From Clostridia bacterium (GTDB lineage Bacteria; Bacillota; Clostridia; Oscillospirales; Acutalibacteraceae): a stretch of 64,000 nucleotides of DNA. Of the stretch, positions 11,423-63,257 are shown in pieces. The stretch covers positions 171,502 to 235,501 of the forward strand of contig JAFVTQ010000002.1 in the NCBI GenBank assembly GCA_017503135.1. Direction: 5' to 3'. The translations under genes and the position numbers were made by a program. A model generated the notes under the pieces. The model was not told the DNA's origin and made no database searches. It worked only from the letters and a program-made list of their open reading frames with translations. Position 1 is the stretch's first letter; the number at the start of each line of letters is the position of its first letter.

Positions 11423-13644
11423 ATTGCCTCGTGGAATGTTCTGCTTATAACTTCTCTCTGCTGTGCTTTTGAAAGTTTATTGAAGTTAACTGCATAACCT
11501 GATACGCGGATTGTAAGGTTAGGATATTTTTCAGGATTCTCATAAGCATCCATAAGTGTTTCACGGTTAAGCACATTGACATTGATGTGATGTGCTTTCT
11601 TTGCGAAATAGCCATCAAGGATTGCAACGAGATTGTTTACTCTTTCTTCGTCATCACGACCAAGTGCTTCAGGTGTGATTGAGAATGTATTTGAAATGCC
11701 GTCACGGCAGTCGTCATAACTGATTTTAGCAACAGAGTTAAGAGAAGCGAGTGCACCGTTTTCTTCACGGTTATGCATTGGGTTTGCACCCGGTGCAAAT
11801 GGCTCTGCATTCTTTCTGCCATCAGGTGTAGCACCTGTGTTTTTACCATACATAACATTTGATGTGATTGTGAGCACAGAGAGTGTATGAATTGCTTCTC
11901 TATAAGTTGGTGTCTGACGAAGTGCAGTAATCACACGGTGAGCCATATCCTTTGCCATAAGGTCAACTCTGTCATCATCGTTACCATATTTAGGAAATTC
12001 ACCGGTTGTGTTGAAATCTACTATAAATCCATCTTCATCCTTAATAGTTTCAACATTTGCAAATTTGATAGCGCTTAATGAGTCTGCCACAACTGAAAGA
12101 CCCGCGATACCGAATGCCATAAAGCGTTCAACATCTGTGTCGTGAAGTGCCATCTGAATTTTTTCATAGGCATATTTATCGTGCATATAGTGAATGACAT
12201 TCATTGTGTTTACATACAAGTGACTGAGCCATTCGATATAAATTTGGAATCTCTCCATAACCTTATCGAAATCAAGAGTATCCATAACAGGCATTTGTGG
12301 ACCAATATGCATTTTGCTTGTTGTATCATAACCACCGTTGATTGCAATAAGCAAAAGCTTTGCAAGGTTACAACGAGCACCAAAGAACTGCATCTGCTTG
12401 CCAACCTTCATTGCAGAAACGCAACAAGCAATAGCATAGTCATCACCATAAATTGGTCTCATTACATCGTCATTTTCATATTGAATTGAGTCTGTATCCT
12501 TTGAAACCTTTGCGCAGAATTTTTTGAAATTTTCCGGCAAAGCATTTGACCACAAAATTGTAAGGTTTGGTTCAGGTGATGAACCGAGAGTATAAAGTGT
12601 GTTGAGAACACGGAAACTGTTTTTAGTAACAAGTGTTCTGCCGTCTTGACCCATACCACCAACTGCTTCGGTAATCCACATTGGGTCACCACCGAAAAGT
12701 TCGTTATATTCAGGTGTGCGAAGGTGACGAGCCATTCGAAGTTTCATAACGAAATCATCCATAAGCTCTTGTGCTTCGACTTCTGTAAGCACACCATTCT
12801 CTATATCTCTTTCAATATAAATATCAAAGAATGTGCTGACACGACCTAATGACATTGCAGCACCATTCTGCTCTTTGATTGCGCCAAGATAAGCAAAATA
12901 TGTCCATTGAATTGCTTCACGAGCATTTTTTGCAGGTTGGCTAATATCAAAGCCATACATCTGAGCCATTTCTTTAAGATAGCCCAAGAAAGTAATCTGT
13001 TGGTAAAGTTCTTCAAATGTGCGAATATCTTCTGTTTTGAAATTGCCTGTTGCACGATTTGCTTTATCTTTTTTCTTCTCTTCAATGAGCTTATCAATAC
13101 CATAGAGAGCAACTCGACGATAGTCACCGATAATTCTGCCACGACCATAAGCATCGGGAAGCCCTGTAATTACGTGGCATTTACGAGCTGCACGCATTTC
13201 GTCAGTATAAGCACGGAAAACACCGTCGTTGTGAGTTGTTCTGAATTTGAATTCTTCTTCAACCTTTTCACTGAGTTTATAACCATAAGCCTCGCAAGCC
13301 TGACGCACCATTCTCATACCACCGAATGGGTTAACGCCACGCTTTAAAGGACGGTTTGTCTGAAGTCCCACGATAATTTCTTTTTCTTTGTCAAGATAAC
13401 CTGGTGAATAGCTTGTAAGTGATGATACAGTTGCTGTGTCAATATCAAGCACACCGCCATATTGTCTTTCGAGCTTGAAAAGTTCGTTGAGCTTATTCAT
13501 AAGGTCAGTTGTACGCTCAGTTGCACCTGCAAGGAATGAGTCATCACCTGTGTATTCTTTATAATTCTGTTGAATGAAATCACGGACATTGATTTCATCT
13601 TGCCATACGCCTTTTTTAAATCCGTTCCAATTAGTGTGTTCCAT
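11419..13644 (-). CDS. pflB: Formate C-acetyltransferase (pyruvate formate-lyase)
   Basis: Glycyl radical motif RVSGYAVNF near the C-terminus and the active-site CC in AIACCVSAM. The start was moved to ATG 13644 (MEHTNWNGF), which is preceded by an AGAGAGGA RBS. The track's 17 aa extension lies inside the leader. Confidence 0.95.
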
Positions 13645-13675
13645 TATAAAGTCCTCTCTTTCTGTTGAAAGTCCA

Positions 13676-13797
13676 TAAAAAACAAAACTGGACAATTCAA
13701 CTTTTTAAAAATTGAATTGCCCAGACGGTCGGCTATTATAAGATATTTTACATTCCCCCGTGGTAGCCCACGAAATCCGTCAGTCATGTAAAATTAC
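13676..13797 (-). promoter_or_regulatory. ZTP (pfl-motif) riboswitch with an intrinsic terminator expression platform
   Basis: Minus strand reads AUGACUGACGGAUUUCGUGGGCUACCACGGGGGAAUG...GCCGACCGUCUGGGCA. This matches the conserved GACUGRCG / CCACNGGGG / CCGNCUGGGC blocks of ZTP riboswitches. GGGCAAUUCAA...UUGAAUUGUCC followed by a U-tract (13722-13676) overlaps the 3' aptamer strand. Confidence 0.9.
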
Positions 13798-13929: not shown

Positions 13930-14331
13930 TTATTTTTTCAAATGAGCACCCGTCATTGTTACGATTGCAACATTATTACCCAAATTATCACTGATTACAA
14001 TCTCATAAAAACAAGTTGTTCGACCATCTTTAATGAGTTTGCTTTCACCATAAAGAATATCGCCTTTTGCCATACCAAGATAGCAAATTTGACTAACTGT
14101 TGTAACTGTAATATCTTCTTGATTAAAATTTGTTGCAACTGCAAAGACAAAGTCTGCAAGTGTAAACATTACACCACCCATTACATTACCAACGGCATTA
14201 CGATGAGAAGCATTTAATTTAAGACTACATTTTGCATATTTTTCTTTTACTTCATCAATTACAATGCCCGTACTTTCAGTGGCATATTTATCCCCGCTGA
14301 AAAAATCTCTAGCTTTTTCAAGGTCTGTCAT
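13930..14331 (-). CDS. PaaI-family hotdog-fold acyl-CoA thioesterase
   Basis: HRNAVGNVMGGVMFTLADFVFAVA is typical of PaaI/4HBT thioesterases. The start was moved to ATG 14331 (MTDLEK) behind an AAAGGTGA RBS. The track start at 14349 lies in the upstream terminator U-tract. Confidence 0.75.
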   Translation of the reverse strand: MTDLEKARDFFSGDKYATESTGIVIDEVKEKYAKCSLKLNASHRNAVGNVMGGVMFTLADFVFAVATNFNQEDITVTTVSQICYLGMAKGDILYGESKLIKDGRTTCFYEIVISDNLGNNVAIVTMTGAHLKK

Positions 14332-14346
14332 AAAAATCACCTTTGT

Positions 14347-14381
14347 CAAAAAACAGCGTATTACAAAAGATAATACGCTGT
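14347..14381 (-). terminator. Rho-independent terminator (possibly leaky) between the ligase fusion and the thioesterase
   Basis: Minus strand reads ACAGCGTATTAtcttttgTAATACGCTGT followed by TTTTTG. Confidence 0.6.
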
Positions 14382-14389
14382 AATTTTTA

Positions 14390-16888
14390 TCATTTTTTAA
14401 GTCCCAATCTTTCGCTTGCTTCTTCTCTCATTTTATATTTGAGAATTTTGCCCGCCGCATTCATTGGGAATGCTTTTACAAAGTCAACATAGCGTGGAAC
14501 TTTGTGTCTTGCCATATTAGCGTTAATATATGCCTTCATCTCGTCTGCTGTCATTTCTTCGCCATCTTTTAAGATGATACAAGCCATAATCTCTTCGCCA
14601 TATTGCTCGTCAGGTACACCTATAACCTGAACATCACTAACCTTTGGATGAGTATAAATAAACTCTTCGATTTCTTTTGGATAGATATTTTCACCACCGC
14701 GAATAATCATATCTTTAAGACGACCTGTGATGTTATAGTTACCCTCAGGTGTTCTGCAAGCCAAGTCACCTGTGTGAAGCCAACCATCTTTGTCAATAGC
14801 CTCAGCAGTAGCCTTTGGCATTTTGTAATAGCCCTTCATAATGTTGTAGCCCCTTGCCACAAACTCACCATTGACTCCGTCAGGACAATCTTCACCTGTT
14901 TCAGGGTCGATAATCTTACATTCAACATTTGCGAATGCGCTACCAACAGTTTCTGTTCTGACTTCAAGAGAGTCATAATAACTACTCATTGTGCAACCAG
15001 GTGCTGCTTCTGTCTGACCATAAACTGAAACGATTTCTTTCATATTCATAACTTCAGTTGCTTTTTTCATAAGGTCTGCAGGACAATTAGCACCTGCCAT
15101 AATACCTGTTCTCATATATGAAAAATCAGTTTTCGCGAAGTCCTCGTGTTGCATCATTGCAATAAACATTGTTGGAACACCATTGAATGTTGTAATATGC
15201 TCATTGTGAACACAAGACAAAGCTGGTTTTGGTGAGAAATATGGTAACGGATACATTGTTGCTCCGTGAGTCATTGCCGCAGTCATTGAAAGTACCATAC
15301 CAAAGCAATGGAACATTGGCACCTGAATCATCATTCTGTCAGCAGTTGACAAATCCATATGGTCACCGATATATTTACCGTTATTTACAACGTTATAGTG
15401 TGTGAGCATAACACCTTTTGGGAAACCTGTTGTACCTGATGTATATTGCATATTGCAAACATCATCTTTATTAACGGCAGCAGCCATTCTGTAAACTGTT
15501 TCAACAGGCACTTGTGATGCACGAGCGATTGCGTCATCCCAAGTCATACATCCCTTTTGCTTGAAACCAACTGTGATAACATTTCTAAGGAATGGCAAAC
15601 GACGGGAATGCAAAGTATCCCCTGACTGCATTGAGTCAAGCTCAGGGCAAAGTTTTGCAATGATTTCACCATAATGTGTATCTTTTGCACCCTCAGTCAA
15701 AATCAATGTATGTGTATCTGACTGACGAAGCAAATATTCAATTTCTGCAATTTTATAAGCAGTATTAACTGTAACCAAAACTGCACCGATTTTTACTGTT
15801 GCCCAAAAAGCAATATACCATTGTGGCACATTTGAAGCCCAGACTGCAACGTGATGACCTGCTTTAACACCCATTGCCACAAGTGAACGGGCAAATGTGT
15901 CAACATCATCTCTGAACTCACTATATGTGCGAGTGTAGTCAAGTGTTGTGTATTTAAAGGCATATTGGTCAGGGAATTCTTCAACCATTCTGTCAAGCAC
16001 ATCTGAAAATGTGTTTTCAATCAAAAGGTCTTTTTTCCAGACGAATTTACCTGTATGAGCACGGTTATAATAAAGAGTTTTCTCATTTCTTGATGGGTCA
16101 TTGAACTGACGCATAAAGTTGATATATTGAGAGAAGATAATCTCCATATCGTCAAGCTCTTCGCACCAAGCCGGGTCCCAAACGAGAGAAATGAAACCAT
16201 CATAGTTAACTGAGCGAAGGCTGAGCATCATCTCGGCGATTGGCAATTCGCCCTCACCTGCAAGACAGTATTCAACGCCATTTTCAGTTTTGACTGCATC
16301 GTGAAAATGAACGTGACGGACATAAGCACCAAGATTTTTAATAACATCTTCTGCTGATTCACCACATTCAAAATATGCTGATGAAAGATTCCACAAAGCG
16401 CCTAAATTGTCACAAGCAAAGCCATCAAGCATATCACGAAGCACTGATGTGCTTGCAAAAAGTCCTGATGTTTCAAGCAAAAGTGTAACGCCCTTTTCTT
16501 CTGCTTGTGGAAGAACTTTACGAAGAAATTCTTCTGTCTGTTTTAAAGCACTTTCACTATCTTCAGAAGCCTTTGCGCGAAGACGGATATATGGAATATG
16601 CAAATTTTCTGCGATTTCTAAACATCTTATCAATTCTTCTTCGATATTGCTATCTTTATCTGCTAATTCGCTGATTGTGTCAAGACAAGAAATCTTCAAA
16701 TTTTTATTATATAAACGACGAAGTGTTGCCGCCGCTGTATAATCGTGAAAAGCACCGTCTTTTGCTGTGAAGAGACGATTATAAATATTGTGGAGTTCAA
16801 TACCCTCAAAATGAAGATATTCTGCTACTTCACAAAAATCTTCAAAGGTACTGTTATGCCACCCTTTTGTTGAAAAGGAGAGATTCAT
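14390..16888 (-). CDS. Fusion protein: xylose-isomerase-like TIM barrel (sugar phosphate isomerase/epimerase family) plus FadD-type AMP-forming acyl-CoA ligase
   Basis: The N-terminal ~270 aa (FEGIELHN...LLLET...HVHFHD...EGELP) fits the AP-endonuclease-2/xylose-isomerase-like fold. The C-terminal ~550 aa carries YTSGTTGFPKGVMLTH, GYYK, TGD and RGGENIYPKEIE motifs of adenylate-forming ligases. Confidence 0.8.
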   Translation of the reverse strand: MNLSFSTKGWHNSTFEDFCEVAEYLHFEGIELHNIYNRLFTAKDGAFHDYTAAATLRRLYNKNLKISCLDTISELADKDSNIEEELIRCLEIAENLHIPYIRLRAKASEDSESALKQTEEFLRKVLPQAEEKGVTLLLETSGLFASTSVLRDMLDGFACDNLGALWNLSSAYFECGESAEDVIKNLGAYVRHVHFHDAVKTENGVEYCLAGEGELPIAEMMLSLRSVNYDGFISLVWDPAWCEELDDMEIIFSQYINFMRQFNDPSRNEKTLYYNRAHTGKFVWKKDLLIENTFSDVLDRMVEEFPDQYAFKYTTLDYTRTYSEFRDDVDTFARSLVAMGVKAGHHVAVWASNVPQWYIAFWATVKIGAVLVTVNTAYKIAEIEYLLRQSDTHTLILTEGAKDTHYGEIIAKLCPELDSMQSGDTLHSRRLPFLRNVITVGFKQKGCMTWDDAIARASQVPVETVYRMAAAVNKDDVCNMQYTSGTTGFPKGVMLTHYNVVNNGKYIGDHMDLSTADRMMIQVPMFHCFGMVLSMTAAMTHGATMYPLPYFSPKPALSCVHNEHITTFNGVPTMFIAMMQHEDFAKTDFSYMRTGIMAGANCPADLMKKATEVMNMKEIVSVYGQTEAAPGCTMSSYYDSLEVRTETVGSAFANVECKIIDPETGEDCPDGVNGEFVARGYNIMKGYYKMPKATAEAIDKDGWLHTGDLACRTPEGNYNITGRLKDMIIRGGENIYPKEIEEFIYTHPKVSDVQVIGVPDEQYGEEIMACIILKDGEEMTADEMKAYINANMARHKVPRYVDFVKAFPMNAAGKILKYKMREEASERLGLKK

Positions 16889-16891
16889 TTT

Positions 16892-18271
16892 TTATGCCTC
16901 CTCATAGACGATTTTGTTAACTGCGTTAAGATATGCACGGATACTTGCGCCCATAATATCGGTTGAAATACCGTTACCTGAATAAAGCTTGCCACCTGAA
17001 CGAAGTTTAACAAGCGCCGAACCCATTGCTTCTTTACCCTCTGTAACTGATTGAATCTGGAAATCATCAAGCTCATAGTGATGACCGATAATTCTGTCGA
17101 TTGCAAGGAATGCGGCATCAATAGGACCTGCACCAATGCAGACATCCTGAATTTTTTTGCCGTCTTTTTCAAGTGTAATCTGTGCACTTGCAGAGATAAT
17201 GTTACCATTATTGATAACATAACTAATTAATTTATATGTTGATGGAACTTGCAATGCAGCACTCGCCACGATTGCTTCAAGTTCTTTAAGACCAACCTTT
17301 TTCTTTGCTGCAACACGCAAAAATTCTTCATAAACTTTATTCTGGTCGTCATCTGACAAATCATAGCCAAGATTTGATGCTGCTGCAATAACATCTGCCT
17401 GACTGTCTTTTTCGTCAAGACAAATTGTTTCAGTTACGGCACTTGTAACTGTAACCGCTGCACGCTCTGTGTCTGCTGTGTCGCTAATCCAACGGATTTG
17501 CTTTGCAATTCTCAAAAGTTCTGTTGTTTTGAGATTTGTTTTAACCCCATATTTTTCACCACAGTTTTTAACCATTGTTGCGAAAGTATCCAATGAAACG
17601 TGGCTACCGTCAACTGCAGTTTTAACAAGAGTTGCACCCTTTCGTACAGAAAGAATTGCCTGAGCAGTTGCAAGGCCATTTTTATTGTCACAACCAACAC
17701 CAACAGGCACATTCACCCAAGAGCCAACTTCTGCGATAAAATCTGCAAAGTCGTCAGGCATTGTTTCTGCTGCGCTGTCGCAAACTGAAACTGATGTTGC
17801 ACCGTTCTGAACTGCGATTTCAACAAGCTTTTTAAGGAATTCAGGCTCTGTTCTTGTTGCATCAAGAGCACAGAATTCAACACAATCACATTTTTCTTTT
17901 GCCATTTTCACTGTTTCGCCAACCCAAATAAGCATTTTATCAGGCTTTTTGTGGCAAGTATATTCCATTCCAACAGGTGAAACTGGCAATTCGATACGAA
18001 TGCAAGGATGAGCCGCATTTGTTAGTGCTGTTGCTGCCTGTTCAATGCTTTCTTTTGTAAGTCCTGCTGCAACTGACAATACACCTTTTTTAACAAATGA
18101 TGAAACAGTTTTAACAAATAGAATATCTGTTCTCGCATCGCTAATTGCAGGAATTTCGATTACATCAACACATAGTTTCTCTAACTGACGAGCAATTTCA
18201 ATTTTTTCTTTGAATGAAAATGAGTTTTGCTCTCTGCAGAGAGTAGCATCAGCAATTCTGATTGTTTTCAT
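16892..18271 (-). CDS. 2-isopropylmalate synthase-like protein (HMGL-like barrel plus LeuA_dimer regulatory domain), predicted catalytically inactive
   Basis: Colinear with LeuA. DTTLRDGEQ is replaced by DATLCREQ, and the HxH metal motif (VHTHDDLGLA) is replaced by VGCDNKNGLA. The C-terminal GAGPIDAAF...VTEGKEAMG..ISTDIMGASIRAYLNAVNK regulatory domain is retained. Confidence 0.75.
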   Translation of the reverse strand: MKTIRIADATLCREQNSFSFKEKIEIARQLEKLCVDVIEIPAISDARTDILFVKTVSSFVKKGVLSVAAGLTKESIEQAATALTNAAHPCIRIELPVSPVGMEYTCHKKPDKMLIWVGETVKMAKEKCDCVEFCALDATRTEPEFLKKLVEIAVQNGATSVSVCDSAAETMPDDFADFIAEVGSWVNVPVGVGCDNKNGLATAQAILSVRKGATLVKTAVDGSHVSLDTFATMVKNCGEKYGVKTNLKTTELLRIAKQIRWISDTADTERAAVTVTSAVTETICLDEKDSQADVIAAASNLGYDLSDDDQNKVYEEFLRVAAKKKVGLKELEAIVASAALQVPSTYKLISYVINNGNIISASAQITLEKDGKKIQDVCIGAGPIDAAFLAIDRIIGHHYELDDFQIQSVTEGKEAMGSALVKLRSGGKLYSGNGISTDIMGASIRAYLNAVNKIVYEEA

Positions 18272-18312
18272 AATGAGTATTCATCCTTTCATTTTTTCGG
18301 GAAAATTACAAT

Positions 18313-18590
18313 AAAAAATCCCTGAAACAGTTAGTTTCTGTTTCAGGGACGAAATTTCTTCGCGGTACCACCCTGTTTACCGTTTATTTGCATAAATCGG
18401 TCAACTCTGTAAGGCTCTGACAAGCCTTTTGCCGTGGTAACGGGGCACGCCGTAACTACCTACACAGTTAACACCTTCAGCAGTTATGCTACGGAATGAG
18501 ACTTCTTTTTCTTTTCATACTGTCTTGCACCGAACGACAGCTCTCTGAAATGAATATGGGAAAAAGAATAGTTCCCTCAACGCATTTAAA
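18313..18590 (-). promoter_or_regulatory. T-box leader, predicted Leu specifier (CUC)
   Basis: The minus strand carries UGAGGGAA (K-turn and helix), CAGAGAG and GGUGCAAG distal motifs, and GU-CUC-A-UUCC in the specifier loop (codon at 18500-18498). It also has the T-box sequence AACAGGGUGGUACCGCGAAG (18378-18358) and the terminator UCCCUGAAACAG...CUGUUUCAGGGA plus U6 (18349-18313). Confidence 0.85.
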
Positions 18591-18609
18591 AATATAAAGA
18601 TTGTTTGAT

Positions 18610-18638
18610 AGTTTAGCACAGGTTTTCTTGTTTGTCAA
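18610..18638 (-). promoter_or_regulatory. Promoter of the Leu T-box unit
   Basis: Minus strand reads TTGACA (18638-18633), a 17 nt spacer, then TAAACT (18615-18610). It begins right after the stop of the oxidoreductase gamma subunit. Confidence 0.55.
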
Positions 18639-18648
18639 GAAAAACTCA

Positions 18649-19182
18649 TTAAAAATCTGCGCCGAGCTTCAAAGCTTTAAGGTTTGTTTCAAGCATATCT
18701 GCACGTTTTGCAGAAATAACCTTTGAAAGTGTTGCTTTAACATCTTCTGCGTTAAAACCACCTAAAACTTCAAGAAGTTTGCCCATCAAAATCATATTTG
18801 CAAGTGTTGGGAAACCATTTTCACTTGCAAGACGAGTTGCAGGTATATAATAAACAGTAACATCATCGCGCTCAACTTTTCTTTCGATAAGTGTTGAGTC
18901 TGCTAAAATAATACCACCTGAAACTACACTCTTTTCAAACTTATCAAGAGATGGCAAGTTCATTGCAACTAAAATATCAGGATTTGAAATGATTGGTGAG
19001 CCAACTGCTTCGTCACTGATGATAACGCTACAGCTTGCTGTACCACCACGCATTTCAGGGCCGTATGATGGCAACCAGCTAACCTGTTTTCCGTCTGTAA
19101 GACCTTTATATGCAAGGAATTTACCTGCGAAGAGGATACCCTGACCACCAAAACCTGAAAGTAACATCTGTTTTGTACTCAT
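18649..19182 (-). CDS. 2-oxoacid:ferredoxin oxidoreductase, gamma subunit
   Basis: LLSGFGGQGILFAGKFLA...PSYGPEMRGG is the gamma/POR domain signature. Confidence 0.85.
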   Translation of the reverse strand: MSTKQMLLSGFGGQGILFAGKFLAYKGLTDGKQVSWLPSYGPEMRGGTASCSVIISDEAVGSPIISNPDILVAMNLPSLDKFEKSVVSGGIILADSTLIERKVERDDVTVYYIPATRLASENGFPTLANMILMGKLLEVLGGFNAEDVKATLSKVISAKRADMLETNLKALKLGADF

Positions 19183-19934
19183 TATTTATCCTCCCCTGCA
19201 CTTCTGTCTTTATAAACACCCAATGGATAATATGGAATCATTTTTTCGTCAATCCATTTAAGTGCCTGTTGTGGTGTAAGACCCCAGTTTGTTGGACAAG
19301 ATGAAACAACTTCAACCAATGAGAAGCCTTTTCCGTCTAACTGATTCTGGAATGCCTTTTTGATTGCCTTTTTAGCATTACGAACTGCTTTAACGCTGTT
19401 TACTGTAACGCGTTCAAGGTATTCAGGACCATCAAGCTGTGAAAGCATTTCACAAACCTTAATTGGATAACCACAATGGTTAACATCACGACCATAAGGT
19501 GAAGTCTGTGTAACCTGACCTGGCAATGATGTTGGAGCCATCTGACCACCTGTCATACCATAAATTGCGTTGTTAACGAAAATAACTGTGATGTTTTCGT
19601 TTCTTGCTGCTGCGTGAACAGTTTCTGCCATACCGATTGATGCCAAGTCACCGTCACCTTGGTATGTGAAAACAACGTGATTTTCAGGGTCTGCACGCTT
19701 AACACCAGTTGCAACTGCAGGTGCACGACCGTGTGCTGCTTCAATCATATCGCAGTTAAAATAGTTATAAGCCATAACAGAGCAACCAACAGGTGCAACA
19801 CCGATTGTTCTGCCTTCAATGCCTAATTCGTCCATAACTTCTGCAACAAGACGGTGAATAATACCATGTGTGCAACCAGGACAATAGTGCATTGACATTT
19901 CATTTAATGAATGTGGTTTATCAAATACAACCAT
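19182..19934 (-). CDS. 2-oxoacid:ferredoxin oxidoreductase, beta (TPP-binding) subunit
   Basis: [13 protein letters not shown]...GDGDLASIG...[11 protein letters not shown] is the TPP-binding beta subunit pattern. Start overlaps the alpha stop. Confidence 0.9.
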
Positions 19935-21001
19935 TATTTTGCACCTCCGTTTTCTGCTACTTCTTTAATTGCTTCTAACACCTGTTCAGGTGAAACAATC
20001 ATACCACCAACACGATTGCAAAGAGTAACTGGTACTTTGCATTCTGTTGCCAATCTAACATCTTCAATCATCTGACCCATTGAAAGTTCAACTGAGATGA
20101 TTGCCTTAACTTTATCTGCTGCTTTCTTGAATGGAGCAACAGGGAATGGCCATAATGTGATTGGTCTAATCATACCAACCTTGATGCCCTGTTTTCTTGC
20201 TTCGTTAACAGCATTTTTTGCAACACGAGAAGCGATACCGAATGCTGCGATTGCATATTCTGCATCATCCATAAGGTATTCTTCATACATTGCTTCGTTT
20301 TCTTTGATATAGTTATATTTTTCATAACGCTCAAAGTTAAGCTGTTCGAGTTCTTCTGGAACAAGAGACAATGAGTTAACAATATTGTGCTTTCTTTGGA
20401 GTTTTGTACCTACTGTTGCCCAAGGCTTTTCTGGAGCAGGCTTAACATCAAATTCAAGAGAAACAGGCTCCATCATCTGACCCATTGTACCATCAGCCAA
20501 AATCATTGATGTCATTCTGTATGTATCAGCAAGTTCAAAGCCCTTGACTGTAAGCTCTGCCATTTCTTGAACTGAAGCAGGAGCAAGAACTATCATATGA
20601 TAGTCACCGTGACCGCTGCCACGAGTTGCTTGGAAATAATCTGACTGGCTTGGCTGAATACCGCCAAGACCTGGGCCACCACGCTGAACATTTACAACGA
20701 GTGCTGGCAAGTCCGAACCAGCCATATATGAAAGACCTTCACTCTTAAGTGAAATTCCTGGGCTTGATGATGATGTCATAACACGACGGCCTGCCGCTGC
20801 AACACCATATACCATATTAATTGCTGCGATTTCACTTTCTGCTTGAAGGAATGCGCCACCGATTTTTGGCATTTTCTTTGCCATATAAGCAGCGATTTCT
20901 GTTTGTGGTGTAATTGGGTAACCGAAGTAATGACGACAACCTGCAATAATTGCTGCTTCGGCAATCGCTTCGTTACCTTTCATTAAAACTTTATCTGCCA
21001 T
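19934..21001 (-). CDS. 2-oxoacid:ferredoxin oxidoreductase, alpha subunit
   Basis: [30 protein letters not shown] is the pyruvate-flavodoxin/ferredoxin oxidoreductase N-terminal domain. Confidence 0.9.
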
Positions 21002-21006
21002 TTAAC

Positions 21007-21213
21007 TCACCTCTCCACCTTAATTACACAGTCAGGACACATAATTGCACAAGATGCGCAACCGATACAAGCAGCTTCGTCTGTAAGCTCTGCAGGGTGA
21101 TGTCCCTTTTTGTTAATCTTGTCTGGTGACAACTGCAAAATGTTTTTTGGACAAGCATCAACACAAAGTCCGCAACCTTTACAGTTATCTGTTTTAAAGG
21201 TTAATTTAGCCAT
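21007..21213 (-). CDS. 2-oxoacid:ferredoxin oxidoreductase, delta subunit (2x[4Fe-4S] ferredoxin)
   Basis: Two CxxCxxCxxxCP motifs (CKGCGLCVDACP and CIGCASCAIMCP) in 68 aa. Confidence 0.9.
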   Translation of the reverse strand: MAKLTFKTDNCKGCGLCVDACPKNILQLSPDKINKKGHHPAELTDEAACIGCASCAIMCPDCVIKVER

Positions 21214-21231
21214 ATATATCGCTCCTTTAAT

Positions 21232-21906
21232 TTAGAGAATTTTATCTTGTAATGTCAACGCCAAAGGCATTGGCACTTTATCTGACAATTCATTATGAAG
21301 TTCTGCTTTATATGCCGTTGCAACTAGTGGTAACCCCGTCGCCTTGGACACGGCATTAGCATATGGGAGTGACCCTAACACATCTTCTGCTGTTGTTTCT
21401 TCACCCAAGTTTGAGTTGTTGACAAGCCCTGTAAATTTAATTCCACAGGCAAACTCGATTTCACCCATAACCTCAAGTGTATCTTCAACAGTTCGTGTTA
21501 AAGGTCTGCATTTATTTATTACCATGAGCATCTCATAGTCATTTTCTTCTTTGATTTTAGGGGCTAATCTGCCAAGTGCCAGAGCACCACGGTCATCTCC
21601 ACCCACATCAATGAGCACTCTATGAGATGTATCATCGGTAATCGAATACATTTCTTGTGGCAATGCAGGAATATCAACATTACTATTCGCAAATTCTGAA
21701 CAGATTAGTTTTATACCTGCACGAGCCAATTCTTCACTGCTGTCTTTTGTTCGGAAATATGGATTAACTATATCCAAATCGGCAATAGTGACTTTGTCAT
21801 ATTGCTTTTTCATCATCATTGCTAAATTCACGGCAACATTTGTTTTGCCACTGCCATAATGACCACACAAAAGAGTTATTCTTTTATCAATTTTCATATT
21901 TTTCAT
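21232..21906 (-). CDS. P-loop NTPase of the MinD/ParA/CooC-like type
   Basis: Deviant Walker A CGHYGSGKTNVAVNLA and DLDIVNPYF. The start overlaps the stop of the upstream ligase (TAATG). Confidence 0.65.
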   Translation of the reverse strand: MKNMKIDKRITLLCGHYGSGKTNVAVNLAMMMKKQYDKVTIADLDIVNPYFRTKDSSEELARAGIKLICSEFANSNVDIPALPQEMYSITDDTSHRVLIDVGGDDRGALALGRLAPKIKEENDYEMLMVINKCRPLTRTVEDTLEVMGEIEFACGIKFTGLVNNSNLGEETTAEDVLGSLPYANAVSKATGLPLVATAYKAELHNELSDKVPMPLALTLQDKIL

Positions 21907-24191
21907 TATAATTTATTACGCTGAATTTTACCACTTACAGTTTTTGGAAGTTCTGTTCTGAACTCAACAATTCTTGGATATTTATAAGGAGCAGTTCTGT
22001 CCTTAACATACTTCTGAATTTCTTTTTTGAGTTCTTCTGTTGGCTCTGTGCCATTTGTAAGCACGATAACTGCTTTAACTACCTGACCACGAACTTCGTC
22101 AGGAACTGCACAAACACCACATTCAAGAACATAAGGGAGTTCCATAATAACGCTTTCAATTTCAAATGGTCCGATTCTGTAACCTGATGATTTGATAACA
22201 TCATCAACACGACCAACATACCAATAGAATCCGTCTTCATCGCACCAAGCAGTATCACCTGTGTGGTAATATCCGTCGTGGATAACTTCGTCTGTCTTTT
22301 CTTGGTCTCTGTAATATTCTGTGAACAAGCCACAAGGTGAACCATTCTGAAGATTAACAACGATTTCACCAACCTGACCAACTGGTACTTTGTTTCCGTC
22401 GGCATCCATAAGTGAAACATCATAAATCGGAGCAGGTTTACCCATTGAGCCGATTTTATGTGGTGCGCCTGTAAGGTTACCGATAATCATTGTGCTTTCA
22501 GACTGACCAAAACCTTCAAGGATTTGAAGTCCTGTTGCCTTTTCAAATTGACGATAAACCTCAGGGTTGAGCGCCTCACCTGCTGTTGTCATATGCTGAA
22601 CTGATGACAAATCGTATTTTGAAATGTCTTGTTTAATCATCATACGAAGCATTGTTGGTGGTGCACAGAATGTTGTGATTTTATATTTTGCAAACATAGG
22701 AAGGATGTCTGCTGCATCAAAACGGTCAAAGTCATAAACAAATGTTGCTGCTTCTGCAAACCATTGTCCATAGAATTTACCCCACATTGATTTAGCCCAA
22801 CCTGTGTCTGAAATAGTGAAGTGTAATCCATCAGGGTTAACGTTGTGCCAATATTTTGCAGTATGGAAATGTCCCAAAGGATATAAATGATTATGTACTG
22901 CGATTTTAGGATATCCTGTTGTACCTGATGTGAAGAACATAAGTAATGGGTCTTTGCCTGATGGTGCGTCTTCTGTACGGTTATAATGTGTACTGTAAAG
23001 TGTGTACTCATCGTCAAAACTGCGCCAACCGTCACGAGAGCCATTAACGATTAATTTATTTTTAAGTTCAGGGCATTTTTCTGCTGCCAATTCAACCTGA
23101 TGAGCAGTATCACCGTCGGCAGTACAGATAATAGTGTTAACCCCTGCTGATTGGAAACGATATTCAAAATCGTGCTCTTGCAACTGATTTGTTGCAGGAA
23201 TTGCGATTGCACCAAGTTTGTTAAGACCTAACACAGCAAACCAGAATTGATAGTGACGTTTAAGCACCAACATAACTCTGTCGCCTTTTTGAATACCCAA
23301 AGATTTAAAATAGTTTGCACATTGGTTAGATGCTTTTTTCAAATCTTTGAATGTAAATCTGTTTTCAGTTTTATCGTTACTGATATGTAACATTGCAAGT
23401 TTATTTGGTTTGTCTTCTGCTAACTTATCAATAACATCAAAAGCAAAATTGAATTTTTCAATATTCTTAAACTCAATCTTTGTTGGTGTGCCGTTTTCAT
23501 CTTTTGTAACATTAACATATTTACGATAAACACGGTCTTTTGTGTCTGGAGTTGCTTTCTTTACCGCAACTGCACGGCTTGGTGTAAGTTCCGGAATTGG
23601 CTCACCTGTTGGATTAAGAACGATTGCGTAGAAAACGCAGTCTTTACCGTTAACAGCAATCATACCATGAGGAGTGTCACTATCATAATAAATGCTGTCA
23701 CCAGGTCCTAAAACTTCTTGGTGTTCACCAATCTGAATAAGCAAGTTACCCTCAACAACAACGTCACATTCCTGACCTGCGTGAGTTGTAAGTTCAATTT
23801 CACGTTGCTCTGCACTTGGGTCATATTTACACCTAACATATAGAGGTTCTGCAATACGATTTTGAAAAGCATAAGCCATATTGTAATATGTCATACCGTG
23901 TGCTTCTGCAACTTCCTGACCTGCTTCTTTACGTGTAACTATAAATGATTTAAGATTTGGGCTATAACCCTCAACGATTTCTGTGACATTGACACCAAAA
24001 ATCATTGCGCAACGATAAATGAAAGCGAAGTTCAAATCTCCGTTACCACTTTCGCAGTTACGGTATTCTTCTGCGCTGACACCGACCTTTGCAGCCATTT
24101 CTTCGATAGTGTAGTTCTCAATTTCACGAAGCTCGCGAATACGACGCGCCATCTCTTGAATTTTGTAGTCCAAACCAGTTATGCGTTCCAT
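21906..24191 (-). CDS. XRE-HTH + cupin + AMP-forming acyl-CoA synthetase fusion (paralogue A, behind the Val T-box)
   Basis: The N-terminus has YTIEEMAAKVGVSAEEYRNCESG (HTH_3). A cupin follows (GPGDSIYYDSDTPHGM), then an ACS-like core (FFTSGTTGYPK, YHTGD, SSGYRIGPFEIES, PKTVSGKIQR). The start was moved to ATG 24191 (MERITGL) behind a GGAGAA RBS. The track's extension reads through the T-box terminator. Confidence 0.85.
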   Translation of the reverse strand: MERITGLDYKIQEMARRIRELREIENYTIEEMAAKVGVSAEEYRNCESGNGDLNFAFIYRCAMIFGVNVTEIVEGYSPNLKSFIVTRKEAGQEVAEAHGMTYYNMAYAFQNRIAEPLYVRCKYDPSAEQREIELTTHAGQECDVVVEGNLLIQIGEHQEVLGPGDSIYYDSDTPHGMIAVNGKDCVFYAIVLNPTGEPIPELTPSRAVAVKKATPDTKDRVYRKYVNVTKDENGTPTKIEFKNIEKFNFAFDVIDKLAEDKPNKLAMLHISNDKTENRFTFKDLKKASNQCANYFKSLGIQKGDRVMLVLKRHYQFWFAVLGLNKLGAIAIPATNQLQEHDFEYRFQSAGVNTIICTADGDTAHQVELAAEKCPELKNKLIVNGSRDGWRSFDDEYTLYSTHYNRTEDAPSGKDPLLMFFTSGTTGYPKIAVHNHLYPLGHFHTAKYWHNVNPDGLHFTISDTGWAKSMWGKFYGQWFAEAATFVYDFDRFDAADILPMFAKYKITTFCAPPTMLRMMIKQDISKYDLSSVQHMTTAGEALNPEVYRQFEKATGLQILEGFGQSESTMIIGNLTGAPHKIGSMGKPAPIYDVSLMDADGNKVPVGQVGEIVVNLQNGSPCGLFTEYYRDQEKTDEVIHDGYYHTGDTAWCDEDGFYWYVGRVDDVIKSSGYRIGPFEIESVIMELPYVLECGVCAVPDEVRGQVVKAVIVLTNGTEPTEELKKEIQKYVKDRTAPYKYPRIVEFRTELPKTVSGKIQRNKL

Positions 24192-24214
24192 AGTTTTTCT
24201 CCATTCTCGGGACG

Positions 24215-24485
24215 AAAAAGCACCCGTCCCAAAGTTTATGACTTTGAGACGAGCGCCGAATATCTTTCGTTGCACCCGCGGTACCACTCAAATTGCAGTT
24301 TATAACTGCCACTCAGGGTCTGACAACCCTTATGCATTCACGCAGCAATCACGGAGAGATTCTACTAACCCCACAGGGCTTTCTTTCTCTCGGCTCGGAA
24401 GCTACAAACACAAAATCGAACCCGAATGACTTGCACCAACCGTCATTTCTCTGAAACCGTCTTTTTTGTGCACTCTTCGTCAGTG
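24215..24485 (-). promoter_or_regulatory. T-box leader, predicted Val specifier (GUA)
   Basis: The minus strand carries UGACGAAG, CAGAGAA, GGUUGGUGCAAG, and UUU-GUA-G-CUUC-CGAGC (codon at 24405-24403). It also has the T-box UUUGAGUGGUACCGCGG (about 24293-24277) and the terminator CGUCUCAAAGU..ACUUUGGGACG followed by GGUGCUUUUU. Confidence 0.8.
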
Positions 24486-24508
24486 CCTTTAACATTTAAT
24501 TGAATGGT

Positions 24509-24538
24509 ATTTTATCATAAACTCCATTCATTTGTCAA
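24509..24538 (-). promoter_or_regulatory. Promoter of the Val T-box operon
   Basis: Minus strand reads TTGACA (24538-24533), a 17-18 nt spacer, then ATAAAAT (24515-24509). It sits immediately after the stop of paralogue B. Confidence 0.5.
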
Positions 24539-24547
24539 CACATAATA

Positions 24548-26815
24548 TTACAATTTATTGCGCTGAATTTTTCCGCTGATTGTCTTTGGAAGCTCTGTTC
24601 TGAACTCAACAATTCTTGGATATTTATAAGGAGCAGTATGCTCTTTAACATATTTCTGGATTTCCTTTTTAAGTTCTTCACTGGATTCTGTTCCCTTTGT
24701 GAGAACAATTACAGCCTTAACAACCTGACCGCGAACTTCATCAGGGGCTGCACAAACGCCACATTCAAGAACATAAGGAAGTTCCATAATAACACTTTCG
24801 ATTTCGAAAGGTCCGATTCTGTAACCTGATGACTTGATAACGTCGTCAACACGGCCAACATACCAATAGAATCCATCTTCATCACGCCAAGCAGTATCGC
24901 CTGTGTGATAATAACCATCGTGCATAACTTCGTCTGTTTTTGCTTGGTCACGATAATAGCCCTTGAATAAGCCACAAGGAACTTTTTCAGAAATCTTAAC
25001 TACGATTTCACCAACTTCACCGTCAGGAACAGGATTTCCCTCCGAATCCATAAGGGAAACATCATAAAGTGGAACAGGAATACCCATTGAACCAACCTTA
25101 TGTTTGCCACCGAGCAAGTTAGCGATTGTGAGAGTAAGCTCTGTCTGACCAAAGCCTTCCATAATCTGTAATCCTGTTGCTTTTTCGAATTGACGATAAA
25201 CCTCAGGGTTGAGCGCTTCACCTGCTGTTGTCATATGCTTGATTGATGACAAATCGTATTTTGAAATATCCTGCTTAACCATCATGCGAAGCATTGTTGG
25301 TGGTGCACAGAATGTTGTTATCTGATATTTTGCGAACATTGGCAAGATATCTGCTGCATCAAAACGGTCAAAGTCGTATGTAAATACTGCGCCTTCGCAC
25401 AACCACTGACCATAGAGCTTGCCCCAAAGAGCTTTACCCCAACCTGTATCAGAAATTGTGAAATGCAAGCCGTGTTCACTGACACCGTGCCAATATTTTG
25501 CAGTAATATAGTGTCCCAAAGGATATTTATATGTATGTGATGCAATTTTTGGATAACCTGTTGTGCCCGATGTAAAGAACATAAGCATCAAATCGTCACC
25601 ACAAGGTGATTCTTCTGTACGATAATAGTGAGCACTATAAAGAGAGAATTCTTCGTTAAAGTTATTCCAACCCTCGCGCTTTTCACCAACAAGGATTTTT
25701 GTTGTGAGTGATGGACAAGTTTTCTGTGCTTCATCAACGTGGTCAGCAATTCCGTCGTCAGATGTACAAACGATTGCGCTGACACCCGCTGCGTTGAAAC
25801 GATATTCCAAATCGTGCACCTGTAACTGATGTGTAGCAGGAATAACAATAGCACCCAATTTGTGAAGTGCGAGCACTGCAAACCAGAATTGATAGTGACG
25901 CTTGAGCACAAGCATAACTCTGTCGCCTTTTTTGATACCCAACGCCTTGAAATAGTTAGCACATTGGTTAGATGCTCGTTTCATATCGTTGAAAGTAAAT
26001 CTTCTCTCAACCTTATTCTTATCAATATGAAGCATTGCAAGTTTATCAGGTGATTTTTTAGCAATAGCATCAACAACATCAAAAGCAAAGTTGAATTTGT
26101 CATCATTTACAAAGTCGATTGTCTTAACACGACCATTTTCGTCTTCAGTTGTTGTTATAAAATCTTCACTTACTAAATGTTTATCCCCTGAATGAGCAGT
26201 AACGATTGTATCGCGAATTTCAGTTTCGTCAGCATTTTCACCTGGCAAAACAACTGCTACGAATAAGCAATCCTGACCGTCAACAGCAATCATACCATGT
26301 GGTGTTGAACTGTTGTAATAAATGCTGTCACCCTCGCTTAAGTATTCAACATTGTCACCAATCTGAATTTTAAGACGACCACTCATAACAAAGTCAAATT
26401 CCTGACCTGAGTGCTTTGAGAGATGAATAGGTTTATTTTGTTGCTCTTCGCTATATTCATATCTAACCCAATAAGGCTCTGCAATTTTTTTACGGAATTG
26501 TGGTGCAAGGTTCTGAATTTCAATGCCATCTTCTTTAGCAGTTGCCTGACCCTTGCCCTTTCGAGTAATTGTATAAGAAGACAAGTGAGCGCTTCTACCT
26601 TCAAGCAAAACAGTAATGTCTATTCCGAAAACCTTTGCGCACTTATGAAGAAATGAGAATGGAAAATCCACTTCACCGTTTTCATAACGGATATACTCTT
26701 CTTCTGTTACTTCTGTTTTCTGTGCCATTTCTGCTTGAGTAAAATCTGCAATTTCGCGCATCTCACGAATTCGCAATGCTACCTCTTGCAATTTTTTTGA
26801 TTCAACTGTTGACAT
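24548..26815 (-). CDS. XRE-HTH + cupin + AMP-forming acyl-CoA synthetase fusion (paralogue B, behind the Ile T-box)
   Basis: Same architecture as 21906-24191. Long blocks are nearly identical to paralogue A, for example DFDRFDAADILPMFAKY.ITTFCAPPTMLRMM.KQDISKYDLSS and TAPYKYPRIVEFRTELPKT.SGKIQRNKL. ATG 26815 lies 8 nt after an AGGAGGAA RBS. Confidence 0.85.
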   Translation of the reverse strand: MSTVESKKLQEVALRIREMREIADFTQAEMAQKTEVTEEEYIRYENGEVDFPFSFLHKCAKVFGIDITVLLEGRSAHLSSYTITRKGKGQATAKEDGIEIQNLAPQFRKKIAEPYWVRYEYSEEQQNKPIHLSKHSGQEFDFVMSGRLKIQIGDNVEYLSEGDSIYYNSSTPHGMIAVDGQDCLFVAVVLPGENADETEIRDTIVTAHSGDKHLVSEDFITTTEDENGRVKTIDFVNDDKFNFAFDVVDAIAKKSPDKLAMLHIDKNKVERRFTFNDMKRASNQCANYFKALGIKKGDRVMLVLKRHYQFWFAVLALHKLGAIVIPATHQLQVHDLEYRFNAAGVSAIVCTSDDGIADHVDEAQKTCPSLTTKILVGEKREGWNNFNEEFSLYSAHYYRTEESPCGDDLMLMFFTSGTTGYPKIASHTYKYPLGHYITAKYWHGVSEHGLHFTISDTGWGKALWGKLYGQWLCEGAVFTYDFDRFDAADILPMFAKYQITTFCAPPTMLRMMVKQDISKYDLSSIKHMTTAGEALNPEVYRQFEKATGLQIMEGFGQTELTLTIANLLGGKHKVGSMGIPVPLYDVSLMDSEGNPVPDGEVGEIVVKISEKVPCGLFKGYYRDQAKTDEVMHDGYYHTGDTAWRDEDGFYWYVGRVDDVIKSSGYRIGPFEIESVIMELPYVLECGVCAAPDEVRGQVVKAVIVLTKGTESSEELKKEIQKYVKEHTAPYKYPRIVEFRTELPKTISGKIQRNKL

Positions 26816-26845
26816 AAGCAATTCCTCCTATACAGAAATTGAAAT

Positions 26846-27100
26846 AAAAAAATTCGCCTCAAAACTAATGCTTTGAGACGAATGTAAAATCATCCGCGGT
26901 ACCACTCAAATTGTAGCTTTCACTACCCCTCAAGGTCCAACAACCTTTATGCCTTTACGCAGCAATCACGAGAAACGTCTACTCCCAACAGGTTTCGGGT
27001 TTCCAGCTCAGAAGTGATAGGTTTCTGGATTTTTGTTATTGACTTGCACCAACCGTCAACTCTCTGAAAACAAGACATCCAAACCGTCTTCGTCATAGCT
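26846..27100 (-). promoter_or_regulatory. T-box leader, predicted Ile specifier (AUC)
   Basis: The minus strand carries UGACGAAG, CAGAGAG, GGUUGGUGCAAG, and U-AUC-A-CUUC-UGAGC (codon at 27018-27016). It also has the T-box UUUGAGUGGUACCGCGG (about 26912-26896) and the terminator UCGUCUCAAAG..UUUUGAGGCGA plus U7 (26882-26846). Confidence 0.85.
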
Positions 27101-27120
27101 TTTGCTATTAAATTACGGCT

Positions 27121-27149
27121 ATTATAACACCACAAAAAACCAATGTCAA
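27121..27149 (-). promoter_or_regulatory. Promoter of the Ile T-box unit
   Basis: Minus strand reads TTGACA (27149-27144), a 17 nt spacer, then TATAAT (27126-27121). Confidence 0.65.
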
Positions 27150-27292
27150 GAATTTTTTTGTTTTATTATATATAGGTATTATGTAACATTTTTTACCAAA
27201 TCCAATATAATTTTTCAAACTCTACTTATCGTAGGTTGTAAGTTTTATTGCTTAATATTATAATGTATTCATACAACTCAAAGGAGAAAATA

Positions 27293-27877
27293 ATGAATAC
27301 ATATATAACAGGTGCAACAATTAAAAATTTGCGTGAATCAAAAGGACTTACTCAACTACAATTAGCGGATAAAATTGGTGTCAGCAGTAAAACAGTTTCA
27401 AAATGGGAAACCGCAAAGGGATTACCCGATATTTCACTCGTTGAACCATTAAGTCAGGCTTTGTGCGTTTCAATAATGGAGCTTATGTCGGGTGAAATGA
27501 TAACTAATAAAAATATTTCGTCAAATATTCTTTTTTCAAAGTTCTATGTTTGCCCAATTTGTGGTAATGTAATCCACACAACGGGTGAAGCAGTAATCAG
27601 TTGTTGTGGAATAACTCTCCCACCCCTTGAAGCCGAAGAAATTGACGATAGCCACACAATAACTATTGAAAATGTTGAAGATGAGAAATTCATAACCGTT
27701 AATCACGAAATGACAAAAAATCACAACATTTCTTTTATAGCCTATGTCACTTCGGATAAAATCCACTTTGTCAAACTCTATCCCGAAGGCAACGCCGAAA
27801 CCAGAATACAGTTTCGTGGCAAAGGATATCTCTATATCTATTGCAATAAACACGGACTAATGAAAATGAAAGTATAA
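27293..27877 (+). CDS. HTH (XRE) - desulforedoxin - superoxide reductase fusion (HTH-Dx-SOR type desulfoferrodoxin)
   Basis: The N-terminus reads LRESKGLTQLQLADKIGVSSKTVSKWE. It is followed by CPICGN..x13..CCG (a Dx-type FeS4 site), then H..x5..H, H and CNKH ligand spacing as in SOR centre II. ATG 27293 follows an AAAGGAGAA RBS. Confidence 0.7.
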   Translation: MNTYITGATIKNLRESKGLTQLQLADKIGVSSKTVSKWETAKGLPDISLVEPLSQALCVSIMELMSGEMITNKNISSNILFSKFYVCPICGNVIHTTGEAVISCCGITLPPLEAEEIDDSHTITIENVEDEKFITVNHEMTKNHNISFIAYVTSDKIHFVKLYPEGNAETRIQFRGKGYLYIYCNKHGLMKMKV

Positions 27878-28002: not shown

Positions 28003-28078
28003 CGGGGTGTAGCGCAGCTGGTAGCGCGCCACATTTGGGATGTGGATGCCGCAGGTTCGACTCCTGTCACTCCGACCA
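28003..28078 (+). tRNA. tRNA-Pro (anticodon UGG), CCA encoded
   Basis: Manual cloverleaf: acceptor CGGGGTG/CACTCCG, D arm GCGC/GCGC, anticodon stem CCACA/TGTGG with loop TTTGGGA, T arm GCAGG-TTCGACT-CCTGT, then discriminator A and CCA. Confidence 0.9.
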
Positions 28079-60220: not shown

Positions 60221-60356
60221 TTTATCACCACCGATAATAGAATCCGTAAAAATAAGCAAAATAAAACCTAATTTTAAAATTCGACTTTATTTCAACTATT
60301 TTCAAAAAAATGAGGATGTTGCGTTAACAACATCCCCGAATTTTTAATAAGCCAAA

Positions 60357-63240: not shown

Positions 63241-63257
63241 AACCTATTTGCCCTCCC

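Follow-up and report, generated by a model that had tools for sequence, protein, structure and literature searches.

Isoleucine, valine and leucine T-box leaders precede acyl-CoA ligases and a 2-oxoacid:ferredoxin oxidoreductase in an Acutalibacteraceae genome: a candidate salvage regulon for branched-chain amino acids

We analyzed a 64,000-nt stretch of the genome of a Clostridia bacterium (Acutalibacteraceae; GCA_017503135.1, JAFVTQ010000002.1:171,502-235,501, forward strand). This whole stretch is called the window, and all positions use its own numbering. On its minus strand, the block at 13930-27149 holds three consecutive transcription units, each headed by one T-box, an RNA switch of the kind that turns on amino acid supply genes. 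The specifier codons of the three T-boxes are for isoleucine (Ile), valine (Val) and leucine (Leu). The Ile and Val units begin with paralogous acyl-coenzyme A (acyl-CoA) ligases, here ACS_I and ACS_V. The Val unit continues with the four subunits of a 2-oxoacid:ferredoxin oxidoreductase, and the Leu unit pairs a LeuA-like protein with another ligase. We read the block as a T-box-gated salvage route that would turn branched short-chain fatty acids into Val, Ile and Leu; judging from gene content and conservation, we put the probability of this reading at about 0.75.

Scanning species-representative genomes with ACS_V revealed relatives of the cluster in at least 591 species-level genomes. For comparison we took the best 80 loci among these, each with 10-kb flanks. 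Nearly all are metagenome-assembled genomes (MAGs) from ruminant or human gut, and they come from Acutalibacteraceae, Oscillospiraceae, "Ruminococcus" and other Clostridia.

T-box leaders and their specifiers

All three leaders aligned over the full length (positions 1-219) of the Rfam T-box model RF00230, whose gathering score is 93 bits. The Leu leader (match 18342-18589, minus strand, 125.2 bits) and the Ile leader (26871-27105, minus strand, 99.0 bits) scored above it. The Val leader (24242-24492, minus strand) fell short of the gathering score, at 83.5 bits; over the 501 bases searched, its E-value was 1e-18. Every leader has the basal kink-turn, specifier loop, AG bulge and distal loop of Stem I, and the UGA..GA, CAGAGA and GGUGCAAG motifs of that stem can be read directly in the sequences. 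The core pattern [AG]GTGGNACC[AG]CG occurs three times in the window, once per leader, and [AG]GUGGUACCGCG is found in all three. For the Val leader, an alignment of 40 orthologous leaders showed compensatory changes in 29 of 53 predicted pairs, some of them in Stem I (basal and distal helices) and others in the subsequent helices. At the end of every leader stands a terminator hairpin plus U-run, with folding z-scores of -3.7 to -5.5. The T-box sequence would otherwise pair with the strand that makes up the 5' arm of this hairpin. The bulge reads UGGU in 152 of 152 leaders, the three in the window included, which fits a discriminator A in the tRNA.

A short sequence beside the Val terminator was also noted. 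GTCCC, at 24208-24213 (minus strand) a few bases past the U-run, is conserved in 41 of 75 orthologous Val leaders. It is complementary to GGGAC in the 3' half of the terminator stem, and could form a hairpin upon read-through, just upstream of the ribosome-binding site.

The specifier register was fixed by the Rfam alignment together with the basal helix, which is GGAA/UUCC in the Leu leader and GAAG/CUUC in the Ile and Val leaders. This register gives AUC, GUA and CUC for the Ile, Val and Leu leaders. A Ser register (UCA/UCC) for the Ile leaders was rejected because the codon would abut the basal helix and because AUC is invariant.

We examined conservation of the specifiers across the 80 loci, where the T-box core pattern had 153 matches. 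These include at least one false positive, a match in locus L032 that sits within a coding gene. Leaders were classed by their first downstream gene, and the specifier was taken from the aligned column. Leaders preceding ACS_I-type ligases had ATC without exception (49/49), those preceding ACS_V-type ligases had GTA (70) or GTC (3, n = 73), and those preceding LeuA-like genes had CTC (22), CTG (3) or CCC (1, n = 26). Six of the seven variant specifiers are therefore synonymous codons, CCC being the lone exception. Loop columns just upstream of the specifier vary by 1-1.9 bits; the codon columns are invariant or synonymous except for CCC. Two metagenome loci agreed, L085 with CTC in its Leu leader and L086 with CTG, ATC and GTC in its Leu, Ile and Val leaders.

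The CCC (Pro) specifier belongs to one Leu-type leader, at L019:1250-1494 (plus strand). It precedes a distant LeuA-like gene (43% identity) and the fused ligase typical of Leu units, followed by Ile and Val units. This could be either a true change of specificity or a MAG error.

The original prediction for this DNA, made from the letters alone, had proposed three T-box leaders with Leu, Val and Ile specifiers. The leaders are borne out by the covariance search, by covariation in the Val leader and by the terminators; the specifier reading is borne out by the Rfam register and by conservation across dozens of species. We consider T-box identity and the specifier calls practically certain. The same prediction gave every leader a promoter with TTGACA and a 17-nt spacer. 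All three promoters are sigma-70-like with an extended -10 TG; the 17-nt spacer holds at 27149-27121 and 18638-18610, and at 24538-24509 the spacer was scored as 18.

At 79% identity, the Val and Ile leaders resemble each other more closely than the Leu leader resembles either one, fitting duplication of a leader-ligase unit followed by a change of specifier. The units stand head to tail. A terminator scan found none in the stretch from the ACS_I stop codon (24548) to the Val promoter and leader, and none from the stop codon of the oxidoreductase gamma subunit (18649) to the Leu promoter and leader. Transcripts from upstream should therefore enter the next T-box, stopping there unless its cognate tRNA is also uncharged, so that each T-box terminator would also end the unit upstream. 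A Leu unit falls within the 10-kb flanks around the Val unit in 26 of the 80 loci; an Ile unit is present as well in 21 of these 26.

Genes of the three units

Features of the block are collected in Table 1.

Table 1. Features of the block, in the direction of transcription (window positions)
Feature	Position	Strand	Details
Ile-unit promoter	27121-27149	-	TTGACA-17-TATAAT, TG-extended, 12/12 matches
Ile T-box leader	26846-27105	-	Core AGUGGUACCGCG at 26906-26895; terminator 26883-26852
Ile specifier AUC	27016-27018	-	Followed by A at 27015 and basal-helix strand CUUC
ACS_I, 755 aa	24548-26815	-	HTH_3 + Cupin_2 + Macs/MbcS-type acyl-CoA ligase; Pfam, NCBIfam
Val-unit promoter	24509-24538	-	TTGACA-18-TAAAAT, TG-extended; begins 10 nt past ACS_I stop codon
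Val T-box leader	24215-24492	-	Core AGUGGUACCGCG at 24288-24277; 17-bp terminator 24257-24219
Val specifier GUA	24403-24405	-	Followed by G at 24402 and CUUC
ACS_V, 761 aa	21906-24191	-	HTH_3/HTH_19 + Cupin_2 + Macs/MbcS-type acyl-CoA ligase; Pfam, NCBIfam
SIMIBI-class P-loop nucleoside triphosphatase (NTPase), 224 aa	21232-21906	-	Start overlaps ACS_V stop by 1 nt
Oxidoreductase delta subunit, 68 aa	21007-21213	-	2x[4Fe-4S] ferredoxin; Pfam/NCBIfam
Oxidoreductase alpha subunit	19934-21001	-	POR_N + PFOR_II; NF005507 VorB
Oxidoreductase beta subunit	19182-19934	-	Thiamine pyrophosphate-binding; Pfam/NCBIfam
Oxidoreductase gamma subunit (POR)	18649-19182	-	Pfam/NCBIfam
Leu-unit promoter	18610-18638	-	TTGACA-17-TAAACT, TG-extended; begins 10 nt past gamma-subunit stop codon
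Leu T-box leader	18313-18589	-	Core GGUGGUACCGCG at 18372-18361; terminator 18350-18318
Leu specifier CUC	18498-18500	-	Followed by A at 18497 and UUCC
LeuA paralogue	16892-18271	-	HMGL-like barrel + LeuA_dimer; Pfam/NCBIfam
TIM barrel (xylose-isomerase-like) fused to FadD-type acyl-CoA ligase, 832 aa	14390-16888	-	Pfam/NCBIfam
Terminator-like hairpin with U-run, end of Leu unit	14353-14381	-	Terminator scan
PaaI-type hotdog thioesterase, probably outside the system	13930-14331	-	Beyond hairpin 14353-14381

ACS_I and ACS_V are 67% identical, and both carry the Pfam domains AMP-binding and AMP-binding_C, as expected of branched-acid ligases. Their orthologues separate cleanly into a cluster of 50 Ile-linked proteins and one of 73 Val-linked proteins, in full agreement with the specifier. 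The nearest solved relative of the ligase domain is Macs from Methanosarcina acetivorans (3ETC; E = 1e-186 for residues 240-759 of ACS_V), whose preferred substrate is 2-methylbutyrate (PMC10455477). Macs aligns with the ligase domain over its full length; unlike the block ligases, the aligned part does not have the additional N-terminal module of ~235 residues, composed of HTH_3 and Cupin_2 domains. Searching this helix-turn-helix (HTH)-cupin module against solved structures gave a weak HTH match and no informative relative. The top NCBIfam match of both proteins was MbcS, with scores of 450.7 and 453.6 bits. We propose that ACS_I is a 2-methylbutyrate-CoA ligase and ACS_V an isobutyrate-CoA ligase. 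Seventeen positions separate the two classes, 11 in the HTH-cupin part and six in the ligase domain. One of them, residue 466, comes after a conserved Gly-Trp; the Val class has Ala there, while the Ile class shares Gly with Macs. In acetyl-CoA synthetase this position lines the acyl pocket, and we treat it as a lead only.

Behind ACS_V comes the NTPase gene, which lies between the ligase and the delta subunit wherever the oxidoreductase genes occur among the 80 loci. Homologues of the NTPase number more than 8000, and no informative name occurs among them. Sequence comparison with solved structures gave weak matches to Mrp/ApbC and nothing more, and a structural model (predicted local distance difference test, pLDDT, 84.5) loosely resembled SRP/FtsY GTPase domains and ATPase-type HypB, with template-modeling scores of 0.5-0.6. 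Two Cys residues are invariant in the family, C14 just before Walker A and C69; DxGGDD and NNSNL motifs are also present. As a guess, the NTPase may act in assembly of the oxidoreductase or in insertion of its cofactors.

The oxidoreductase is of VOR type, with all four subunits recognized by Pfam in adjacent, tightly packed genes. The alpha subunit passed the NCBIfam model for VorB (NF005507; 539 bits against a cut-off of 399), while the beta, gamma and delta subunits gave sub-cut-off matches to generic or 2-oxoglutarate-type models. Among related loci with at least 1.3 kb of sequence past the gamma subunit, 36 of 38 have a further gene of ~355 codons directly after it, on the same strand and across a short gap. 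This gene encodes IlvE, the class II branched-chain aminotransferase (NF009897; 480-487 bits against a cut-off of 307). With ligase, NTPase, oxidoreductase and IlvE as its usual content, the Val operon would cover every step from isobutyrate to valine. The window itself departs from this arrangement: at 18590-18649, past the gamma subunit, there is no ilvE, and the Leu promoter stands there instead.

The LeuA-like protein that opens the Leu unit shares with LeuA the HMGL-like triose-phosphate isomerase (TIM) barrel and the C-terminal LeuA_dimer regulatory domain (PF08502, E = 2.5e-31). LeuA keeps the LRDGEQ and HxH motifs, which are lost here and across all 26 orthologues. Aligned with 3RMJ and 3EWB, the window copy has LCR-EQ for LRDGEQ and GCDNK for HCHND; among the orthologues these catalytic positions are not conserved and the losses vary. 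The protein scored under every LeuA equivalog cut-off. A GxGP[IV]DA-type motif is kept in all 26 orthologues, with minor substitutions in a few. We rejected the possibility of a working isopropylmalate synthase, as the RDGEQ and HxH motifs bind substrate and metal. Judged by these motifs, the protein is a catalytically dead paralogue that keeps a predicted leucine-binding regulatory domain. The original prediction of a LeuA-like protein stands for the family; the catalytic residues are lost, and the motif that is kept is that of the regulatory domain.

The TIM-barrel-ligase fusion always follows the LeuA-like gene in related loci. The modeled TIM barrel (pLDDT 89) matched generic xylose-isomerase-like barrels, among them IolI, AsbF and ketose epimerases; at the "SLEWDP" motif the window copy has Val in place of the Glu of most relatives. 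One metagenome locus (L086:6592-10513, plus strand) encodes the LeuA-like protein (470 aa), TIM barrel (280 aa) and ligase (562 aa) in three separate overlapping genes, divergent from its Ile and Val units, which supports a functional link among the three. We propose the fusion as a candidate isovalerate-CoA ligase.

The gene content originally described for the block was found again, except that the LeuA-like and fusion genes are separated by 3 nt and do not overlap. The PaaI thioesterase gene, which had been considered a possible member of the Leu unit, was rejected: the hairpin at 14381-14353 intervenes, and the other 25 Leu units have no PaaI gene behind them.

The salvage reading is least secure for the Leu unit. 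Its ligase comes from a different clade than ACS_I and ACS_V, no activity can be assigned to two of its three protein modules, and the Ile and Val leaders resemble each other more than they resemble the Leu leader. These features would suit a scheme in which the Ile and Val units salvage as proposed while the Leu unit has another leucine-related role, without activating isovalerate. We think this quite unlikely, given that the Leu specifier is kept in 25 of 26 leaders, that the Leu unit lies within 10 kb of the Val unit in 26 genomes (21 of them with an Ile unit), and that isovalerate would need just a ligase to join the shared oxidoreductase and IlvE.

A candidate salvage route and its alternatives

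The proposed route would work as follows. Uncharged tRNA-Ile, tRNA-Val or tRNA-Leu would pair with its own specifier (AUC, GUA or CUC) as well as the UGGU bulge, stabilizing the antiterminator so that transcription could proceed into the genes. From the Ile unit, the Macs-type ligase would convert 2-methylbutyrate to 2-methylbutyryl-CoA. From the Val unit, the paralogous ligase would convert isobutyrate to isobutyryl-CoA, accompanied by the accessory NTPase and the VOR-type oxidoreductase. From the Leu unit, the FadD-type ligase fused to a TIM barrel would convert isovalerate to isovaleryl-CoA, paired with the dead LeuA paralogue. The oxidoreductase, running as a synthase, would combine each acyl-CoA with CO2 and reduced ferredoxin into a 2-oxoacid, which IlvE, encoded in the Val unit of most related genomes, would aminate.

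The reading draws on the conserved pairing of specifier and gene, the ligase relatives, the VorB match and IlvE in the related operons. A salvage regulon of this kind was the central proposal of the original prediction, and it gains support from the kinship with Macs and MbcS, the passing of the VorB cut-off by the alpha subunit and the aminotransferase gene in 36 of 38 loci.

Several points weigh against it. The substrates, the enzyme specificities and the carboxylating direction are what we infer from the genes, as are the roles suggested for the HTH-cupin module, NTPase, TIM barrel and LeuA-like protein. ACS_I and ACS_V reach about half of the 850-bit MbcS equivalog cut-off, making them relatives and not equivalogs, and a search for characterized relatives of the Leu-unit ligase gave no informative one. 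The Val leader is sub-threshold in Rfam, and orthologous Val and Ile leaders score around the gathering threshold. No IlvE homologue is encoded anywhere in the 64-kb window, so the aminotransferase must be encoded elsewhere. The oxidoreductase is found only behind the Val T-box, so starvation for Ile or Leu alone would have to rely on its basal expression or on another enzyme. Lastly, the coupling of Val unit and oxidoreductase, which had been predicted, holds here and in most relatives; in ~13 of 75 genomes the Val leader and ligase are followed by unrelated genes, with no adjacent oxidoreductase.

Those ~13 genomes, together with MbcS as top NCBIfam match, would also be expected if the ligases mainly supplied acyl-CoA primers for branched membrane fatty acids, like MbcS of Staphylococcus aureus, with amino acid synthesis secondary or absent. 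Ruminococci do also build branched acids into lipids. We nonetheless consider a primer function unlikely. The ligase shares a transcript with the oxidoreductase, and in 36 of 38 relatives IlvE belongs to that transcript as well; primer supply requires neither. Three amino acid-specific T-boxes suit supply of three amino acids, and an oxidoreductase working oxidatively under Val starvation would drain the precursor of Val.

The direction of the oxidoreductase matters in another way. VOR-type enzymes are reversible and run oxidatively in amino acid fermenters, and IlvE is reversible too, so the block might be catabolic, with the oxidoreductase oxidizing the 2-oxoacids of Val, Ile and Leu, and ligases and IlvE serving fermentation to branched acids. 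This is highly improbable. T-box genes are on when the amino acid is scarce, making degradation counter-productive; the terminator and antiterminator designs are intact in all three units; and AMP-forming ligases spend ATP to activate acids instead of releasing acids from acyl-CoA.

The salvage reading can be extended, tentatively, to a scheme that we regard as doubtful though not far-fetched, in which each ligase has its own amino acid sensor for fast feedback. The HTH-cupin module would be a Val or Ile sensor that might bind DNA, making the ligase a transcription factor as well, and the LeuA-derived pseudoenzyme would be the leucine sensor of the isovalerate ligase. In the same scheme the SIMIBI NTPase would be an assembly or activation factor letting the oxidoreductase run the uphill carboxylation, and the head-to-tail T-boxes would form a relay in which each terminator ends the prior unit.

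Comparison with known systems, and neighboring features

T-boxes, VOR-type enzymes and reductive carboxylation are each already known; what appears new is a T-box wired to a non-canonical route of amino acid supply. The block shares with the T-box supply operons of Firmicutes (ilv-leu of Bacillus subtilis with its Leu T-box; ileS, valS and leuS) the RNA architecture and termination switch, the specifier choices (CUC, AUC, GUA/GUC), the UGGU bulge and the logic of induction by uncharged tRNA. Unlike known T-box operons, it places acyl-CoA ligases and a ferredoxin-dependent oxidoreductase under T-box control, joined in relatives by IlvE, with no synthetases, ilv/leu genes or transporters. Also unlike the Firmicutes operons, it has three T-box units of differing specificity placed head to tail, with no separate terminators. 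Two T-box surveys make no mention of CoA ligases or ferredoxin oxidoreductases (PMC2494555, PMC3766115). In some bacteria leuA does stand behind a Leu T-box (PMC2494555), as the LeuA-like gene does here. The original prediction had taken the wiring to be undescribed; in agreement, full-text literature searches turned up no description of acyl-CoA ligases or a 2-oxoacid:ferredoxin oxidoreductase under T-box control, although an earlier mention is possible.

Among enzymes, the oxidoreductase falls into the same four-subunit delta-alpha-beta-gamma class as archaeal VOR-type enzymes. Compared with Macs and MbcS, the block ligases are a pair of paralogues, each bound to a different T-box specifier.

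In ruminococci and other rumen anaerobes, Val, Ile and Leu reportedly arise from the corresponding branched acids through reductive carboxylation, as described by Allison, Bryant and co-workers. To our knowledge, that classical work defined the pathway by labeling, and not by genes or regulation. The chemistry that we propose is the same, from acid to acyl-CoA to 2-oxoacid to amino acid, as is the gut and rumen setting; the block would add a gene cluster and RNA regulators, an unassigned NTPase and unusual domain fusions. It thus offers candidate genes behind a nutritional trait that labeling studies have documented in rumen and gut bacteria since the 1960s. Many fiber-degrading Clostridia of rumen and gut need or gain from branched-chain volatile fatty acids, which dairy cattle receive in their feed as "isoacids", and the genes and regulation of the pathway in these bacteria have apparently not been described so far. 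The cluster offers candidates for each step, namely three ligases, an oxidoreductase and an aminotransferase, with the T-boxes indicating which amino acid is served.

There are consequences for annotation. Predictions of Val, Ile or Leu auxotrophy from genomes could be wrong if they ignore a salvage route, and the LeuA-like gene of this block should not be scored as a leucine biosynthesis gene. The T-box regulon is extended past synthetases, canonical biosynthesis genes and transporters, and three unstudied architectures are highlighted: the HTH-cupin-ligase fusion, the LeuA pseudoenzyme and the oxidoreductase-linked NTPase.

Other features of the window were noted. Just upstream of the block lies a lone tRNA-Pro(UGG) gene (28003-28078, plus strand); tRNA-Leu, tRNA-Val and tRNA-Ile genes are absent from the 64-kb window. 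A divergent HTH protein (27248-27877) was considered as regulator of the cluster and rejected, being unconserved beside it. RnfB and RnfA genes are found at 62431-63854 (minus strand), with rnf C, D, G and E just outside the window on the same contig, and an ApbE gene at 59144-60259; Rnf could be a source of reduced ferredoxin for the carboxylating oxidoreductase.

At the other end of the block, a ZMP/ZTP (pfl-motif) riboswitch was identified at 13712-13797 (minus strand; 65.9 bits against a gathering score of 39), with its own promoter-like site (13832-13804) and terminator (13724-13688). It is followed by genes for pyruvate formate-lyase (11419-13695), its activating enzyme (10715-11422) and formate-tetrahydrofolate ligase (9027-10697), the classic arrangement for this riboswitch.

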